Positions 1,406 through 50,344 of a stretch of 64,000 nucleotides of DNA are shown here, piece after piece. The stretch is taken from the IMG/VR virus record IMGVR_UViG_3300042691_053485, positions 64,001 to 128,000 of that record; one strand, given 5' to 3'. Positions within the stretch are counted from its first letter, which is position 1, and the number at the start of each line of letters is the position of its first letter. A program made the position numbers and the translations under genes. This stretch comes from a virus. The notes below the pieces were generated by a model. That model had not been told where the DNA came from. It did not search any database and saw only the letters and a list, made by a program, of their open reading frames with translations.

Positions 1406-2895
1406 CTAATAACCTGAATATATTTTTTCAACTTGTTAATGTTTTTTGATATTTTAGGAAGAACATGCTCATTCATATCCTTTACCTCTAATTCCACCTT
1501 CTTAGGATTTTTACTCCTTGTTGTTGACTCAAAGTGATAGCACATTGCACTCCCAACATAAATATTTTTATAGTTTCTAATGATACACTCTAAATTTAAA
1601 ATGACATCCTCCATACAGTCATAGGTTTTTTCTTCAAACCCTTTGATGCCATCAAAAAGCACCTTTCGAATCATCAAAAATGCCCCGGTACTTCCCAAAA
1701 CATCATTTTTAGTCTTAAATCCGTGATAGAAGGTTTGAATGCCGTGGTGTGAAAGCCCTATCCTTCCCTTATTTACATAACAAACAATCCCTGCATGCTG
1801 TATTTTATTGTTGAGATAGTGTAGTCTGCAACCAATAGTACCAGTGGTTTTTGGCGATTTTAAATATTCTGCAACCATAATTGAAATTGCATCATTCATC
1901 ATCAAAATGTCATCATTAACAAACAATAACAGCTCGGTATCGGACTCGACATGATTTTTTACAACATCATTATTTATTTTTGCAAAATGGTAAAAGTCAT
2001 ATTCAATCAACTTGTCAATCACTCTTTCACCATTGAGTTGCCTAAGTTTAGAAATAGTATCAGATTCGCTGCCAGTATCCGCGACATAAATTTTATAGTT
2101 CCTGTATTGAGTTGTAAATCGAATAGATTCAATACAACTCTTCAGAAGCTCAAAATTATCCTTTGAAGGGATTATTATCGCAAGTTTGGGTTCTCGGGGT
2201 AACTCAACAATTTTATTCTCTATATGTGGCTGGGGGAAGAGTTCTAAGGGTAATTTATTCTTATAAGTCTCCGCAAATTTTCGTCTGCTATATTCCCACT
2301 CCTTTGAAACATTTCCAATAGAGGCGTGTCGGACTTTAAAATCGCTGACAACACCAATTTTAACACCTCGTAAATGATTCTCAACACAAAAAGGAATGTC
2401 ATAAAAGTGGAATCCTTCAAATTCTTCAACAAAATTTGCCTTGATTCTATCCTTTTTGATTGCGATAAAAAGTCCATCTACTGCAAGAACTTCTTGAATT
2501 GTGCTTGGGATTGATTCAGAATATTCGCTGTCTTTCCAAGCCCCCTTTTCGTCCCGATGATGAACCGACCCTACCATCAGATGTCGGTCTTGCCACCACA
2601 TTCCTGTTTCGGGTAATCTTGTTGTACCCGCAACGCCAAGTATTCCATAATTACTTTTTTGGAAGGCATCAAAAATTATTTTATCCCAGCCTTTACTTAA
2701 AAAAACATCGTCATGGATGCAAACCAAAATATCATTTGAACTTTCTAAAATCGCTTGATTATAAGCTTTTGCAAGCGAAGTTTGCCCATTATTTTCAAAT
2801 GGGATTATTTCCACATTCTCCAATACACAAGTCCCACGTAAATATGTTAAATGTTCATTGTCAATCTTTCGCGTCGAATAAAAAACAGAAATCAT
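1402..2895 (-). CDS. Two-domain GT2-fold glycosyltransferase
   Basis: N-domain LAKAYNQAI...VCIHDDV...YGILGVAG...LAVDGLFIA...FHFYD; C-domain AIIIPSKD...VADTGS...LLFVNDD...GAFLMIRK...DVILNL...HFES. Confidence 0.85.
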   Translation of the reverse strand: MISVFYSTRKIDNEHLTYLRGTCVLENVEIIPFENNGQTSLAKAYNQAILESSNDILVCIHDDVFLSKGWDKIIFDAFQKSNYGILGVAGTTRLPETGMWWQDRHLMVGSVHHRDEKGAWKDSEYSESIPSTIQEVLAVDGLFIAIKKDRIKANFVEEFEGFHFYDIPFCVENHLRGVKIGVVSDFKVRHASIGNVSKEWEYSRRKFAETYKNKLPLELFPQPHIENKIVELPREPKLAIIIPSKDNFELLKSCIESIRFTTQYRNYKIYVADTGSESDTISKLRQLNGERVIDKLIEYDFYHFAKINNDVVKNHVESDTELLLFVNDDILMMNDAISIMVAEYLKSPKTTGTIGCRLHYLNNKIQHAGIVCYVNKGRIGLSHHGIQTFYHGFKTKNDVLGSTGAFLMIRKVLFDGIKGFEEKTYDCMEDVILNLECIIRNYKNIYVGSAMCYHFESTTRSKNPKKVELEVKDMNEHVLPKISKNINKLKKYIQVIR

Positions 2896-2927
2896 TTTTA
2901 TTTTAATTTGGAATTCAAAGGAATAAA

Positions 2928-3941
2928 TTAAATTTCATTAGCTTTATCTCCGATTTCAATGATTTCATCAAATAGTTTATCAGAAAATAAATCTGTCACA
3001 AAAACCGTACTCTTTCCTGAAGACATTTCAAGATTGTAGTAAACAATGCTGCCTGAATCCCCTGCACCCAACTGTCCAATTGGATTGTCTTGGTCGTCAA
3101 ACCACTCTTTTAATAGCTTTACACTAATAATTCTACCCGCAAGCAGCGCTTTAGAAAATAAATGTAAATCCGTAACTGTCGTATAAATCAGTCCCTTGGA
3201 CAAAGAATTAGTCCATAGGTTGCCTCTCTCCATATTACCCGTTTCGTCAATTATAAATCCTATCATTTTTCTAACTTCAGGCTTTCTATAGTCAACTCGA
3301 CCGCTATTTCGACATCCCGCAGGAGCGAAAATATATTCTTCTAACAATTGATACCAACGTTTTTTCATCGTTAGCTCAGCAATCGTTGTGAGGATATAGA
3401 AATTTGAATTACTGTAAAGTTCCTCTTTTCCTGCTTCAAAATAAAGGGGGTACTGACTCAATGCACGCATAACATCGACCCATCCGAAAGATTTTGGGGC
3501 ATCTGGGTTGTACGATGCGAAATCGTCGATTTCATTCATGAAATCAGGAATACCACTCTTATGCAATAAGCAGTCTCTAACTGTTATATTACTCCACGCA
3601 TTCCAATCGTAGTAGTTGATAACATTCTTTCCATCTTTTGTAGGGTCTAGCCAATCGAGAATTGGGGCATCAAGGTCAATTTTACCTAGTTCTACAAGTT
3701 TAAGAATGAGAACTTTTACATGAGTTTTACTAACACTTTGAGCTAGGAACGGAGTGTTATTTTTGATTTTGCCTCGATTCCATTGAAACTTAACAACTCC
3801 CTTTGAACCGTCTTTTTCAAAGTCAACGACCTGTAAATTCAAACTTGGAATTCTGTACTCCTCTTTGAATTGTGCTAACTCTTTTATAATATTAATCCTC
3901 TTTCGATGTTTTGTTTCCGAAAGAATTGATTTAAACTTCAT
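2928..3941 (-). CDS. Serine hydrolase, beta-lactamase/PBP-like family
   Basis: SxxK (QSVSKT), LLHKSGI, YxN (LYSNSNFYIL). Start moved to ATG 3941 (MKFKSILSE), 13 nt downstream of a TATTTATA motif. No signal peptide. Confidence 0.8.
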   Translation of the reverse strand: MKFKSILSETKHRKRINIIKELAQFKEEYRIPSLNLQVVDFEKDGSKGVVKFQWNRGKIKNNTPFLAQSVSKTHVKVLILKLVELGKIDLDAPILDWLDPTKDGKNVINYYDWNAWSNITVRDCLLHKSGIPDFMNEIDDFASYNPDAPKSFGWVDVMRALSQYPLYFEAGKEELYSNSNFYILTTIAELTMKKRWYQLLEEYIFAPAGCRNSGRVDYRKPEVRKMIGFIIDETGNMERGNLWTNSLSKGLIYTTVTDLHLFSKALLAGRIISVKLLKEWFDDQDNPIGQLGAGDSGSIVYYNLEMSSGKSTVFVTDLFSDKLFDEIIEIGDKANEI

Positions 3942-6256: not shown

Positions 6257-6430
6257 AAAAAATCGATATAAGCATACCGTTCTCAAAAACTTGCACAAAG
6301 TTGAACATGTCAAACATGTGCAGTTTTTGTTCCCAATTCATCGACAGGCTGAGTGCTGAAAAGCACCGAACTCCCATCTCCAAGGGCTGACACGGTGGAA
6401 CTCACCGCCAAATTTTTCAGGTTGATGCTT
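6257..6430 (-). ncRNA. Predicted omegaRNA scaffold plus guide
   Basis: Overlaps the tnpB 3' end (GCGGTGAGTTCCACCGT hairpin ... GAGAACGG). Guide predicted as the flanking TATGCTTATATCGATTTTTT (6276-6257). 5' boundary approximate. Confidence 0.5.
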
Positions 6431-7674
6431 GCATTCAAATCCCTGTCAATTTCGAGGTGACAGAAATTGCAAGCATATTTTCTCTCAGAAAGTTTCAAAC
6501 TTTGTTTTTTGTTGCCACAACTTGAGCACAACTTGCTGCTGGCAAAGAAGGTGTTCGCCAAAATGACTTCTCCCCCATACCATGCTTTTTTGTACAACAG
6601 TTGTCTTTTGAACTCAAAAAATCCACCGTCAAGGATTGCTGATGCAAGCTTTTTGTTTTTCACCATGTTCTTGACCTTCAAATCCTCTATCACCACCACT
6701 TCAAAGTTTTTGGCGAGATAGGTTGTCAGTTTGTGAAGACAGTCCTTTCTTACATTTGCAACTGCGGCATGAATCTTTGCAAGCTTTTGAACAGATTGTT
6801 TGTAGTTGTTGCTTTGGCTTTCAGCTCCTCTAACAAATCTTCTGCTCACCTCTTTTTGTTGCCTTCTGAGTTTCTCCTTTGCCTTTTTGTAAGGCTTGAT
6901 ATTTTCGAATGTTTCTCCATTACTGAGTGTTGCCAAGGTTTTAACACCTAAGTCAACACCAACGACAAGTTCTTTCTTTTTTGTGATAGCCGGAATGTGT
7001 TCGACTCTGAATGAGATGAACCAGTGGTCAGCAGTCCTGCTGATTGTGCAGTTCTTTATGGACTTAACATCTAGTGTTTCGGATAATTTTACCCATCCAA
7101 TTTTTGGTAGTTTGACTTTATTCCCTTCTATCCTTATGCCATGTTTGTTACTATTTTCCAGATAGAATGAATCGCCTCTTCCTTTCTTCTTGTATCTTGG
7201 TAGTCCTTGCAGACCTGTTGAGGTCTTAACACCATTTACAATTTTATAGTGAAGAAGCTTGTATCCTGATTGCTTTTGCAGGCGGTGAAAGTTCTTGTAT
7301 GCTGTCTCAAGATTCCTCAGTGCTTGTTGTGGGGCGCATTTTGACACCTCATAATACCAAGCATGTTCCTTTTTCACCGTTGCTACAAGCCACTTATGAA
7401 GTGTGATGGCTGATGGGGTTGATTTCCCGTCTTTAAATAAGTCATTGCAATAGCTCAAAGCCTGATTGTAGGCATGACGAGCTGTGCCTGCATGTTTTGC
7501 AAACATCTGCTCCTGCAACCTTGTAGGCTCTAACCTTATCTTCAATGACTTGTATTGCATTTTCTGCTTATTTCAATCTGCTATAACCCGAAAAACTTAT
7601 ACACCATGTGGCAATTAATATACCAATGTTTAGAAATGTTACACTTTGTTCAAATATTTTTTAACTGCTGTCAG
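6277..7674 (-). mobile_element. Non-autonomous tnpB-only IS607/IS200-605-like element
   Basis: tnpB with no tnpA nearby. Right end ...AAGTTTTTGAGAACGG at 6277. Left end inferred at GG|CTGA (7675/7674); left boundary tentative. Confidence 0.6.
6310..7560 (-). CDS. tnpB: TnpB RNA-guided endonuclease
   Basis: HTH (KIRLEPTRLQEQMFAKHAGTARHAYN), RuvC I VGVDLGVK, RuvC II VIEDLKV, Zn ribbon CSSCG...CNFC, RuvC III DRDLNA; the D-E-D triad is intact. Confidence 0.95.
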   Translation of the reverse strand: MQYKSLKIRLEPTRLQEQMFAKHAGTARHAYNQALSYCNDLFKDGKSTPSAITLHKWLVATVKKEHAWYYEVSKCAPQQALRNLETAYKNFHRLQKQSGYKLLHYKIVNGVKTSTGLQGLPRYKKKGRGDSFYLENSNKHGIRIEGNKVKLPKIGWVKLSETLDVKSIKNCTISRTADHWFISFRVEHIPAITKKKELVVGVDLGVKTLATLSNGETFENIKPYKKAKEKLRRQQKEVSRRFVRGAESQSNNYKQSVQKLAKIHAAVANVRKDCLHKLTTYLAKNFEVVVIEDLKVKNMVKNKKLASAILDGGFFEFKRQLLYKKAWYGGEVILANTFFASSKLCSSCGNKKQSLKLSERKYACNFCHLEIDRDLNASINLKNLAVSSTVSALGDGSSVLFSTQPVDELGTKTAHV

Positions 7675-25346: not shown

Positions 25347-25354
25347 TATTTATA
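25347..25354 (+). promoter_or_regulatory. TATTTATA putative late promoter (sheath)
   Basis: Exact motif 11 nt upstream of the ATG. Confidence 0.65.
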
Positions 25355-30165: not shown

Positions 30166-30660
30166 ATGGCTAACTTACTTTTAAATGCGCCTTTAAAATA
30201 CGAACCTAAAACTAAGAATAGGTGGCTTTTAGTTTTTCCCGAAGATGTCGGAATTCAATCATGGGCAGTAAAATCTGTTGATGCACCGAAGGTGACTATT
30301 AATAAAAAGGAAATGTCTTTTGTCAATACAAAAACTTACGTAAATACTTCGTATGAGTGGGGTGAAATGAACTGCACAATTAGGGACTTTATTGCACCTT
30401 CACAATCCGAAGCTCTTATGGAGTGGTTTCGCCTACATGCAGAAAGTGTCACAGGTCGTATGGGATACAATGTAGGGTGTGCAAAAGATATTATTTTGGA
30501 GAGTTTAGACCCAACAGGGGTTGTCACTTCGCAATGGCTTTTGAAAAATACAATTATTGTCGGTACGGTGGAATTTGGACAATTAGATTATGGGGATGAT
30601 GAGATTAGAGAAATTTCATTCACAATGCAACCACAATATTGTGTCTTGTTATTTGGATAA
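30166..30660 (+). CDS. Tail tube protein (gp19-like)
   Basis: YEPKTKNRW...W.EM..TIRDFIAPSQSEALMEW.RLHAESVTGRMGY...LDPTG..FG.LDYG. Confidence 0.9.
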   Translation: MANLLLNAPLKYEPKTKNRWLLVFPEDVGIQSWAVKSVDAPKVTINKKEMSFVNTKTYVNTSYEWGEMNCTIRDFIAPSQSEALMEWFRLHAESVTGRMGYNVGCAKDIILESLDPTGVVTSQWLLKNTIIVGTVEFGQLDYGDDEIREISFTMQPQYCVLLFG

Positions 30661-30685: not shown

Positions 30686-30715
30686 AATAAACCTATCGAA
30701 ATCGGTAGGTTTATT
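30686..30715 (+). terminator. Intrinsic terminator
   Basis: AATAAACCTATCGA-AA-TCGGTAGGTTTATT. Confidence 0.75.
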
Positions 30716-30752
30716 TTATTTATATTCAATAGCAAATCATATTAAAATAAAA

Positions 30753-30768
30753 TGTTCCACGTGGAACA
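30753..30768. other. parS: parS centromere-like site
   Basis: Perfect 16-bp palindrome TGTTCCACGTGGAACA, intergenic. Confidence 0.8.
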
Positions 30769-30786: not shown

Positions 30787-31566
30787 ATGCAAATACAAAA
30801 TAACAATCCCTACGAACAATTCGAAGTAAACAGTGAACTAGTTACACTCTCTTCGCGGGGATATTATTATCCTGAAATTGAAGGTAAGCCATTGACAGAA
30901 GTCGAAGTTTTCGACCTTGTCACCCAAGACGAAAATATTCTCCTTTCACCGAAATTAATTGAATCCGGAGAATTGATTAATGTTCTTTTGAAGAAGAAAG
31001 TAAAAACTCCTTATCCAATAGAAAAATTCACGATTGGTGATAGGCTGCAACTTTTGATTTATATCCGGTCAACAATGGATAATATGTACAATGTAGAATT
31101 GATTGACCCCCAAACAAAAAAGCCATTCCCCTATTCAATAAATTTACATGAGTTGAATGAGAAGGAATTGAAAGATTATCCAGACAAAAATACAAAGTTA
31201 TTCGAATATAAGCTTCCAAAGTCTGGAAGACTTGTGAAATTCAGATTGATGACTGGTGAAGATGAAAAAATAATCCAAATGCGGGAGCAACGCGAACAGC
31301 AGCTTCGAAATACCGATGAATCATTTTATAATATTTTCAAAATGGAGCAAGTAATTGTTTCTATTGAGGGTATTGATGAGAAGGATTCTATTGCAAAGAG
31401 TAAGTTCATTCGTGGAATGAATATGAAAGATGGGAGGTTGTTAAACGCTTATATGGATGAGGTTATGCCAAGTATTGATTTGAATGTTGAGGTGACCACT
31501 CCGAGTGGGGAGCGATTTCAAACAAAACTTCCTTTCACCAAAGAGTTTTTTTATCCAACATTATAA
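30787..31566 (+). CDS. Tail assembly chaperone/baseplate hub protein (gp26-like)
   Basis: LSSRGYYY, T.DENILLS, IGDR.QLLIYIR, LPKSGR.VKFRL.TG.D; lies between the tube and tape measure genes. Confidence 0.8.
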   Translation: MQIQNNNPYEQFEVNSELVTLSSRGYYYPEIEGKPLTEVEVFDLVTQDENILLSPKLIESGELINVLLKKKVKTPYPIEKFTIGDRLQLLIYIRSTMDNMYNVELIDPQTKKPFPYSINLHELNEKELKDYPDKNTKLFEYKLPKSGRLVKFRLMTGEDEKIIQMREQREQQLRNTDESFYNIFKMEQVIVSIEGIDEKDSIAKSKFIRGMNMKDGRLLNAYMDEVMPSIDLNVEVTTPSGERFQTKLPFTKEFFYPTL

Positions 31567-47351: not shown

Positions 47352-47855
47352 ATGAAATCATTAGCAGCAATAAACAAGGAATTGTTATCAGGACGGTCAC
47401 TTGACGATGAATCATTTAAAGTAGAAGTTTTGGAAACTCTGATAAGCATTTTTGAGGATGCTTCCAACTTCAACGAAACTGTTTTAAATAACTCGGACAC
47501 AGATTTAGATTATATATCCGAGGATGAAATGAAAATTGCCTCATATATCACAACACTTGGTATGGCAAAATCTATAGCTAAAGTGGCATTAGAAAATAAA
47601 ATGTCAGTAGCAGACGAGCGTTGGCGTAAAACCAATCTTTCAGATTATAAGCAATCCTCCAAGTCCTCAACCATTCACCTATCAAATTTGAAGGGATTAG
47701 CAGAAGTTATGCCCTTTAATCAAATTGCCTCCCTTTTAGAGACACTTTACTACGATTTTAACCGAAAGTTCGAAGCGTTGCGAGCAGTCGCTTCAAACCG
47801 AAAATTTGAGATTGAGAAAGGGCTTATCGATTACACAATTAGAAAGAAAAAATGA
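47352..47855 (+). CDS. Hypothetical protein
   Basis: 167-aa helical ORF. Confidence 0.7.
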   Translation: MKSLAAINKELLSGRSLDDESFKVEVLETLISIFEDASNFNETVLNNSDTDLDYISEDEMKIASYITTLGMAKSIAKVALENKMSVADERWRKTNLSDYKQSSKSSTIHLSNLKGLAEVMPFNQIASLLETLYYDFNRKFEALRAVASNRKFEIEKGLIDYTIRKKK

Positions 47856-48880
47856 AAACATTATTAGTTGACGGTAATAGTCTGCTGAAGAATTCATTTG
47901 AAGCTACAATTTCAACTGAAGAATATCAGCTTGGAATCAATGGTATTTATTGGTTCTTGTACAGAGTTAGATTTCTGTTGGATACAGAGAAATATCACAG
48001 ATTCAAAGTCGTCTTTGACGGTAAGGATAGTGGAAGGTTACGCAAGGATGTTTTTGCAGGTTATAAAGCAAGTCGAAAAGATAAGAAAGATGAAGATGTA
48101 GACAAATATGAATCTTTCAAGTCCCAAAAAACGGCATTAAAGGCAATATTAAGTCACTTATGCCCGGTCATCGAAGATGATATTGTAGAAGCTGACGATA
48201 TTATTGCCTATTACGTTACAAATAAGCAATCTGAAGAAAAAGTTACAATTGTAACAGGAGACTTCGATTTAACACAGTTGATAAGTCCAACCGTAAATGT
48301 TTATTACTTAAATCGAAAATTCAAGAATAAGACACGAACAGTTGAAAGATATGAGAAAAATGACGACCGAAGGAGCATGATTATTGACCATAAAAATTTC
48401 TTAAAACTTTTCGGTCATCCGTACCAAAATATACCAATCATAAAATCAATTTGTGGAGATGCTTCAGATGAAATTCCAAATATCAAAGGAATTAAGGAAA
48501 CATCTCTTTTCAATCTTTTTCCATCCCTTCTAAAGGAAGAAGGTTCAATCGAGTCTATACTATCTGAATGTGGGAACTTTTTGGAAGAGAAAAATGTTAC
48601 AAAAAGTAAGCAAAAAAGGTTCATATTTGAAGGTGTGGTTAAGGATACTTCTGACCCGGATGTAATAAAACGAAATATGCGATTAGTTAAACTCCCAAAT
48701 AATGAGTTTATGACTGATAGTTGTAAGGAAGCTTCATCCATTTTCTTAGCCGCAAAAAATGAATTAAATGATGCTATTGGATTGAAATTAAAATTAGACT
48801 CAACAGGTCTATCAAAATTTATTTCCAAAAAATTAAAAAACTCAAAAACATTTTTTAAACCTTTTAACTTAAAATCTTAA
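47852..48880 (+). CDS. 5'-3' exonuclease / T4 RNase H-like FEN nuclease
   Basis: LLVDGNSL, VVFDG, R.....YKASR, EADDIIA, IVTGDFDLTQL, GDASDEIPNIKGI. Confidence 0.92.
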   Translation: MKTLLVDGNSLLKNSFEATISTEEYQLGINGIYWFLYRVRFLLDTEKYHRFKVVFDGKDSGRLRKDVFAGYKASRKDKKDEDVDKYESFKSQKTALKAILSHLCPVIEDDIVEADDIIAYYVTNKQSEEKVTIVTGDFDLTQLISPTVNVYYLNRKFKNKTRTVERYEKNDDRRSMIIDHKNFLKLFGHPYQNIPIIKSICGDASDEIPNIKGIKETSLFNLFPSLLKEEGSIESILSECGNFLEEKNVTKSKQKRFIFEGVVKDTSDPDVIKRNMRLVKLPNNEFMTDSCKEASSIFLAAKNELNDAIGLKLKLDSTGLSKFISKKLKNSKTFFKPFNLKS

Positions 48881-50023: not shown

Positions 50024-50344
50024 ATGGAAACTTTTAAAATTCCCTTCACGCAAAAATTCTTTACAGGTTTACAAGATTGGCGGTGTAAAGCAAAATCGGT
50101 CATCCTTGTTAAAGATGAGCGAGATATAGAATCTCTTTGGAATCTTTTATGTGAGCAAGATGAAGATTGGCTCAATTATAAAGAGGTAATTAGGGTCGCA
50201 CCAAAGGTCTTAGAATCAGAATTACAGTTACACAATATCAGCGTTTATTGCGGAAAAGCTTCAATATTCAACGTTGAACAATTACAAGCCAAAATTCCTT
50301 TCCTAATATATCAAGAGCCTGAAACATTTGAATGGCAATGGTAA
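50024..50344 (+). CDS. Hypothetical protein
   Basis: 106-aa ORF. Confidence 0.6.
   Translation: METFKIPFTQKFFTGLQDWRCKAKSVILVKDERDIESLWNLLCEQDEDWLNYKEVIRVAPKVLESELQLHNISVYCGKASIFNVEQLQAKIPFLIYQEPETFEWQW

Follow-up and report, generated by a model that had tools for sequence, protein, structure and literature searches.

An orphan host-type parS site among the tail genes of a T4-like jumbo phage, probably a loading site for host ParB

The closest described system to the locus studied here is that of phage phi29, for which five parS sites are reported to be read by the host Spo0J protein, with the phage genome being segregated into the prespore (PMC2731898; PMC9437464). Host-type parS sites are described for the virulent Bacillus phages phi29 and Nf (Castilla-Llorente et al. 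2009, PMC2731898; Meijer et al. 2005, as cited), and another account describes the Spo0A boxes of phi29 together with CtrA boxes and 'lytic deferment' in virulent phages (PMC9437464). The chromosomal parS consensus is given as TGTTTCACGTGAAACA (Livny et al. 2007, as quoted in PMC10197239). A literature search found no chromosomal-type parS on a ParB-less phage outside phi29 and Nf. The kind of site described below is already known from phi29; what is new is its occurrence in a T4-like phage whose host does not sporulate.

The DNA under study (the window) is a stretch of 64,000 nucleotides comprising bases 64001-128000 of a 184,534-bp virus record, the completeness of which is estimated at 68%. 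An earlier model-generated reading of the window, made from its letters and termed here the sequence-only reading, had reported a perfect 16-bp palindrome at positions 30753-30768, had noted no second copy, and had matched it to the ParB/Spo0J parS consensus. All three observations were confirmed. The palindrome, TGTTCCACGTGGAACA, is a perfect inverted repeat and agrees at 16/16 positions with the degenerate form TGTTNCACGTGNAACA, which we take to be the consensus of the chromosomal parS, the loading site of ParB/Spo0J. Neither the 16-mer nor TGTTNCACGTGNAACA was found a second time at up to two mismatches anywhere in the 184,534 bp, and the sole further match in the window, at positions 50265-50280, carries three mismatches and is at chance level, given that shuffled sequences contained a mean of 0.18 matches per window at three or fewer mismatches. 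From the record's own composition, the number of exact 16-mers expected by chance was 2.0-2.5e-5, and that of matches to the 14-position consensus was 5.5-6.5e-4. Half-sites were not enriched in the record (6, 13, 15, and 11 observed against 6.0, 7.8, 11.6, and 13.9 expected). The record contains eight perfect 16-bp palindromes, of which four have a CAATTG centre and resemble terminator hairpins; the parS palindrome does not belong with these. Three of four public runs, drawn from three studies, contained identical contig pieces that cover the site, and this recurrence indicates that the site is not an assembly artefact. Public contigs over the parS region were either identical or derived from distant relatives. 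A role as a restriction site was considered and rejected, as the sequence CACGTG is not avoided in the record (9 observed against 11.9 expected), and no extended hairpin or attC-like structure was evident by eye around the site.

The position of the palindrome among the tail genes is summarized in Table 1. The sequence-only reading had placed it between the terminator of the tube gene and a chaperone gene. The site is indeed intergenic and does follow the tube terminator, which is found at the same place in relatives, but the label given to the downstream gene did not hold: the match to phrog_150, together with the syntenic gene in Flavobacterium phage immuto, which is annotated as a baseplate hub subunit and has the tape measure gene next to it, identifies that gene as encoding a baseplate hub rather than a chaperone. 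The parS ends 18 nt before the hub ATG.

Table 1. Coordinates, within the 64,000-nucleotide window, of the parS site, its neighbours, and the exonuclease-gene junction at which relatives carry parS.
Feature	Position	Strand	Basis or remark
Tail tube gene, upstream neighbour	30166..30660	+	phrog_4542 tail tube, E 3.7e-18
Intrinsic terminator after the tube gene	30686..30715	+	13-pair stem, then T run
Promoter-like motif TATTTATA of the hub gene	30713..30720	+	Upstream-motif enrichment
Orphan host-type parS, TGTTCCACGTGGAACA	30753..30768	.	Single copy; parS-family match; recurs in relatives
Baseplate-hub-like gene, downstream neighbour	30787..31566	+	phrog_150 baseplate hub, E 3e-8
Junction of the 167-aa gene and the 5'-3' exonuclease gene	47352..48880	+	PF02739 match; genes overlap at 47852-47855

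The hub gene is preceded by an 8-mer, TATTTATA, that occurs upstream of 22 of the 70 genes with an upstream gap of at least 35 nt, a 26-fold excess over background. The motif has a median distance of 20.5 nt from the ATG. At the hub gene the spacing reaches 70 nt, more than at any other of the 22 genes, and it is in this extra leader that the parS sits. In most of the 22 genes, structural ones included, TATTTATA (in extended form ATATTTATA) lies 15-33 nt before the ATG, one instance being that at 25347-25354 upstream of the sheath gene, and its core also precedes the tube genes of dozens of related contigs. The motif is probably the late-promoter element of this clade, with very short leaders. 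When the region was aligned with that of relatives, the right half of the palindrome corresponded to their ATGGAAAT and the left half to a gain of ~10 nt, which suggests that the parS of this phage arose in place.

The phage is T4-like, encoding a gp20 portal, a gp23 capsid protein, a gp21-type protease, a tail sheath and tube, and gp25, and it is a large freshwater jumbo phage with a genome size estimated at ~ 270 kb. The absence of parA and parB, noted previously for the window, was found to extend beyond it: no member of the ParA or ParB families, and no integrase, was detected with Pfam among the 186 ORFs (136 + 50) of the available 68% of the genome, nor was there an HTH or ParB-type reader among them. 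The lone match to PF02195 (ParB_N), with a score of 13 bits, was discarded as a candidate phage ParB because Pfam assigns it to a GmrSD_N restriction-endonuclease domain. A phage ParB may still be encoded in the missing 32% of the genome. The cognate parA and parB of a self-contained ParABS system of the P1, N15, or plasmid-prophage type are absent from the same 186 ORFs of the 68%-complete record, and a lattice of the phage-encoded ParB/KorB type, with tens of dispersed palindromes and a phage ParB, does not describe the locus either, there being one copy and no ParB in the available 68%. Likewise, nine related or large phage records contained no ParB_N match above the cut-off.

Three phage proteins carry the T9SS Por_Secre_tail domain, and a phage TnpB is closest to the TnpB of a Spirosoma MAG (54%); on these grounds the host is most likely a member of the Bacteroidota. 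In all, four TnpB (OrfB_IS605) genes are present in the record (L134:11208-12398, L136:7936-9183, window 6313-7560, and L140:10132-11340). In the phylum of the Spirosoma MAG, TGTTNCACGTGNAACA was found in 137 of 201 sampled genomes, with 1-5 clustered copies, against 1 of 201 for the letter-reversed control, and the exact variant carried by the phage is present among these genomic sites. The gene mnmG/gidA is a classic origin-region gene, and all six of the sampled loci adjoined it. Bacteroidota parS sites (for example L172-L177) typically flank this gene, often as a pair ~ 1.9 kb apart or as tight clusters with spacings of 40-500 bp. The Spirosoma MAG itself, the genome of which is incomplete, gave no match to TGTTNCACGTGNAACA. 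The occurrence of the same 16-mers close to the origin in the likely host phylum makes a host ParB the obvious reader, and we infer that this reader would be of canonical specificity.

The same record also lacks many 6-bp palindromes altogether (ATGCAT, 0 against 75 expected; AGATCT, 0 against 55; CATATG, 0 against 52; GGATCC, 0 against 27; AGGCCT, 0 against 22; CTGCAG, 0 against 20), which is a strong signature of restriction-site avoidance, and the phage encodes C5 and D12-class N6 DNA methylases.

Taken together, the palindrome is probably a genuine orphan host-type parS, and host ParB is the protein most likely to be loaded on it, a reading that we favour while leaving considerable room for error. 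Upon injection, the phage palindrome would be recognized by a host ParB dimer, which would bind CTP and, once closed as a clamp, move out over the adjoining phage DNA, and such spreading would couple the phage genome to the partition machinery of the host. The use that we prefer is that a stalled phage genome would be inherited, or anchored, while a slow-growing infected cell divides, and this would be the non-sporulating counterpart of the Spo0J-dependent spore entrapment of phi29. The next choice is that ParB would be titrated off the host origin once the phage genome had been amplified, followed, in third place, by a local roadblock on the leader of the hub gene. We infer both the binding of ParB and a benefit to the phage. 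Carrier-state segregation, recruitment of SMC, titration of ParB, and effects on the expression of tail genes, all raised in the sequence-only reading, could each follow from such loading. Note, however, that PMC10197239 has a section headed on the reliance of Bacteroides on unidentified SMC complexes, which renders an SMC-loading role less secure in this phylum.

The conservation of the site was explored first at the tube-hub position. Five loci representing three lineages (L003/L004/L005, L130, and L131) share the tube-terminator-hub layout of this phage, their hub proteins being 52-56% identical and their tube proteins (L003, L130, and L131) 70-74% identical to those studied here, and in none of the five is a parS present. 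The tube-hub position is unique to this phage among the relatives compared, and the comparison does not support purifying selection on this copy. Two cultured relatives, Flavobacterium phage immuto and Microcystis phage Mel-JY01, contained no perfect parS, giving only matches with two mismatches, at the level of the control.

Relatives of this phage do, nevertheless, carry perfect sites at other places. The 29-kb contig that holds L005 (G001; hub protein 53% identical) has two of them, TGTTCCACGTGGAACA and TGTTCCACGTGAAACA, 286 bp apart. The two sites flank an inserted 79-aa ORF (ORF79) that separates a 166-aa gene from the 5'-3' exonuclease gene, and they precede ORF79 and the exonuclease gene by 9-30 nt. 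The corresponding junction of this phage (Table 1) has neither a parS nor an insert, and the phage encodes no homologue of ORF79 (best E 0.04), a protein without a Pfam family. A scan seeded with the exonuclease protein yielded 80 loci, in which the close relatives were 46-54% identical. All five of the close relatives with readable upstream DNA carry one or two perfect parS sites within 330 nt upstream of the exonuclease gene, in contrast to none of 74 distant relatives, and the reversed control likewise gave none. Two of the five (L265 and L266) are identical and a third (L267) is 90.6% identical to both, while L268 and L269 each form a lineage of their own (69-73% nucleotide identity), so that the five amount to three or four independent lineages. 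In L269, ORF79 is present and has a parS on one side only. In a further contig, L024, two sites again flank a small ORF, and in this case the pair shares 14 extra upstream bases, giving a direct repeat of ~ 32 bp. The small ORFs flanked in G001 and L024 look unrelated by eye.

A third placement was seen in L083 and L019, whose tube proteins are 49-50% identical to that of this phage and in which the parS lies between the terminator of the sheath gene and the tube gene. L083, L019, and L024 were retrieved by means of the exact 16-mer, and no frequency is taken from them. A scan seeded with the tube protein returned at least 581 relatives, and the best 80 loci of these (976 kb) contained no perfect site and four matches with one mismatch. 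When the upstream regions of the best 80 were combined with those of L083 and L019, a tube subclade comprising 11 of the 82 regions (8 distinct) was apparent, in which every region carries either an intact parS or a decayed one, located 246-285 nt ahead of the tube ATG. There were no mismatches in two of these regions, one in three regions of identical sequence, two in two, three in two, and four, plus two half-sites, in two regions of identical sequence. The best matches in the remaining 71 regions had mostly 5-7 mismatches. Among four large relatives (60-93% complete), even a one-mismatch site was found in only one, and none of the four contained a ParB_N match above the cut-off.

The stretch between the parS and the tube gene in this subclade is non-coding over 250-300 nt (L083:590-810 and L019:1250-1500, minus strand; also L200, L205, and L260) and contains repeated CCCAGTATACTAG and ACTGGAAC(T/C)GGT-like motifs together with a conserved GTAAAAAACTACGAAAA box; it possibly serves in regulation or encodes a small RNA. 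In L019 the sheath region and the parS are separated by an ORF (positions 1517-3016, minus strand) that is at least 402 aa long and contains cysteine-pair motifs. This ORF is absent from L083, has no Pfam family at E 1e-5, and resembles a free-standing insert of the homing-endonuclease type.

Alignment of eight phage sites showed 15 of the 16 positions to be invariant in otherwise unrelated flanks, the sole variable position being a G/A at position 12, which is degenerate in the parS consensus. The flanks of the perfect sites of related phages have diverged to ~ 70% identity, and the sites occupy shifting intergenic places. From this alignment it is the sequence, and not a structure, that appears to be conserved; retention of the letters, those of the loop included, without compensatory change argues for recognition by a protein and against an RNA structure. 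The expectation of conservation in relatives, on which the sequence-only reading had let its proposal depend, is borne out for the motif, all examinable close relatives having perfect sites at other places, and not for the position, which lacks a site in three lineages. Within the narrow clade, a site is present somewhere in each phage open to examination, a pattern that fits selection on the possession of a site and not on one place. In view of its absence from most of the wider clade and its decay in the tube subclade, the parS is dispensable in that wider clade, and any benefit that it confers must be conditional.

The occurrence of the site was then considered across IMG/VR. The exact 16-mer was found in at least 121 contigs, against 3 for the reversed palindrome (at least 40-fold), at loci whose local G+C ranged from 21% to 73%. 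Fifty of the 16-mer-bearing records, part of 80 fetched with flanks, were searched whole for ParB_N, which was detected in 2 and not in the other 48; among the records at least 90% complete it was detected in none of seven. The excess over the control, together with the 48 of 50 records without a ParB domain, suggests that the device known from phi29 is common and under-described. Two very large and apparently unrelated phage contigs may be mentioned here: G208 (350 kb, 73% complete) has a perfect orphan parS at C1:323849-323864, and G209, an 84-kb fragment with ~ 21% G+C around the site, has two perfect parS sites 30 kb apart (C1:41085-41100 and 70873-70888), in both cases with no ParB_N.

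Other explanations of the site were weighed against this evidence. The palindrome could be an operator, bound by a phage regulator or by a host regulator other than ParB that controls the downstream gene, in which case its identity with parS would be mimicry or coincidence. Such a role would account for the intergenic placement of all copies, each of which precedes a gene (by 18 nt in the case of the hub ATG, by 9-30 nt in G001), and for the unusually long leader in which the parS lies between TATTTATA and the ATG, and the regulator could be encoded in the 32% of the genome that lies outside the record. However, each genome has just one or two copies. These adjoin unrelated genes (hub, tube, ORF79, a 66-aa ORF, and the exonuclease gene) and may be as close to the ATG as 9 nt or as far from it as 273 nt. 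Such variability in neighbours and in spacing speaks against a dedicated operator. In addition, all copies match the parS family at 16/16 positions, with variation confined to the degenerate parS position, and the 186 ORFs contain no HTH or ParB-type reader. An operator is therefore regarded as unlikely.

To the same degree unlikely, in our judgement, is a neutral or hitch-hiking element, that is, the boundary of a mobile small-gene cassette or a relic of recombination that is competent for ParB by happenstance and brings the phage no benefit. The paired sites around a small ORF in G001 and L024, with the ~ 32-bp direct repeat in L024, are what a cassette boundary might leave behind; the phage studied here lacks both the ORF79 insert and the site at the exonuclease junction, and copies in the tube subclade decay. 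Against this, ORF79 of L269 is accompanied by a single flanking site, the copy in the window flanks no insert and looks to have arisen in place, and neither a recombinase nor an extended hairpin is found nearby. Moreover, a neutral 16-mer would not be expected to remain perfect over lineages at ~ 70% nucleotide identity.

Far less probable than either is a hairpin acting as a terminator on the minus strand or as a stem-loop in the 5' leader that affects the stability or translation of the hub mRNA. A simple scan does class the site as terminator-like on the minus strand, with a 6-pair stem and an ACGT loop followed by TTTTATTTTA, and the parS is probably within the leader of the hub gene. The predicted fold, at -7.1 kcal/mol, is however a weak one (z values of -1.8 and -1.6; 13 and 12 of 200 shuffled sequences were as stable), no minus-strand ORF of at least 90 aa lies within several kb of the site, and the real terminators of the phage have stems of 10-13 pairs. 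The exact letters, loop included, are also kept across phages with neither compensatory changes nor covariation. Finally, a chance match, although many gigabases were covered, so that a few random 16-mers are expected, and the reversed control occurs three times in IMG/VR, is the least credible of all, being effectively refuted by the recurrence of perfect sites in relatives (seven further ones in related phage contigs), with only 2e-5 to 6e-4 expected in this record and an excess of at least 40-fold over the control in IMG/VR.

Loading by host ParB thus remains the preferred reading of the locus. A broader proposition, put forward tentatively and considered rather doubtful as it stands, is that an orphan copy of the host centromere may be a widespread and repeatedly evolved tactic of ParB-less phages, extending far beyond those of spore-formers, which would be gained, moved, and lost as hosts change and which would serve here in the inheritance of a stalled infection or in stripping ParB from the host origin. 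If host ParB does load at this site, a T4-like phage that looks strictly lytic would have a handle on the segregation of the host chromosome. Pseudolysogeny or inheritance in a carrier state would then be directly testable, since a single 16-bp site can be scrambled. On a practical level, a viral contig that carries a perfect host-type parS should not on that account be taken for plasmid or host contamination, and such a site hints at a host with a canonical ParB.

In comparison with the described systems, the feature shared with phi29 and Nf is that a phage without a partition protein of its own bears the parS consensus of the host chromosome; for the present phage this was found within the available 68% of the genome. 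The borrowing of host ParB proposed in the sequence-only reading has its precedent there (PMC2731898), and the exact parS and the lack of phage parA and parB agree with it. In phi29, a homologue of ParB from the host is reported to read the site and to couple the genome to segregation of the host chromosome, and here a host ParB would do so. The two phages differ in most other respects. On the one side, phi29 is described as a protein-primed podovirus of 19 kb that infects a spore-former and carries five sites; its benefit is given as capture of the genome by the prespore, with Spo0A boxes by which the lytic cycle is stalled. On the other side stands a T4-like jumbo phage (~ 270 kb estimated) of a presumed non-sporulating Bacteroidota host, with one site and no known stalling signal. 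The combination of several sites with prespore capture is not seen, there being one site in 184.5 kb. Bacteroidota form no endospores, so prespore capture, the sole benefit demonstrated for sites of this kind, cannot apply here.

The chromosomal ParABS systems, such as Spo0J/parS of B. subtilis, use the same 16-bp family, and in the likely host phylum their sites are clustered beside mnmG/gidA, whereas the phage site is single and not clustered, and no parA or parB belonging to it was detected in the available part of the genome. The clamp palindromes of the RK2 KorB/OB type differ again, the phage having one universal chromosomal site and no ParB in the available 68%. The Spo0A and CtrA boxes share with this parS the principle that a lytic phage carries sites for a conserved cell-cycle protein of its host; those boxes are described as promoter-associated regulator sites present in several copies, whereas parS is a centromere site at which a clamp is loaded.
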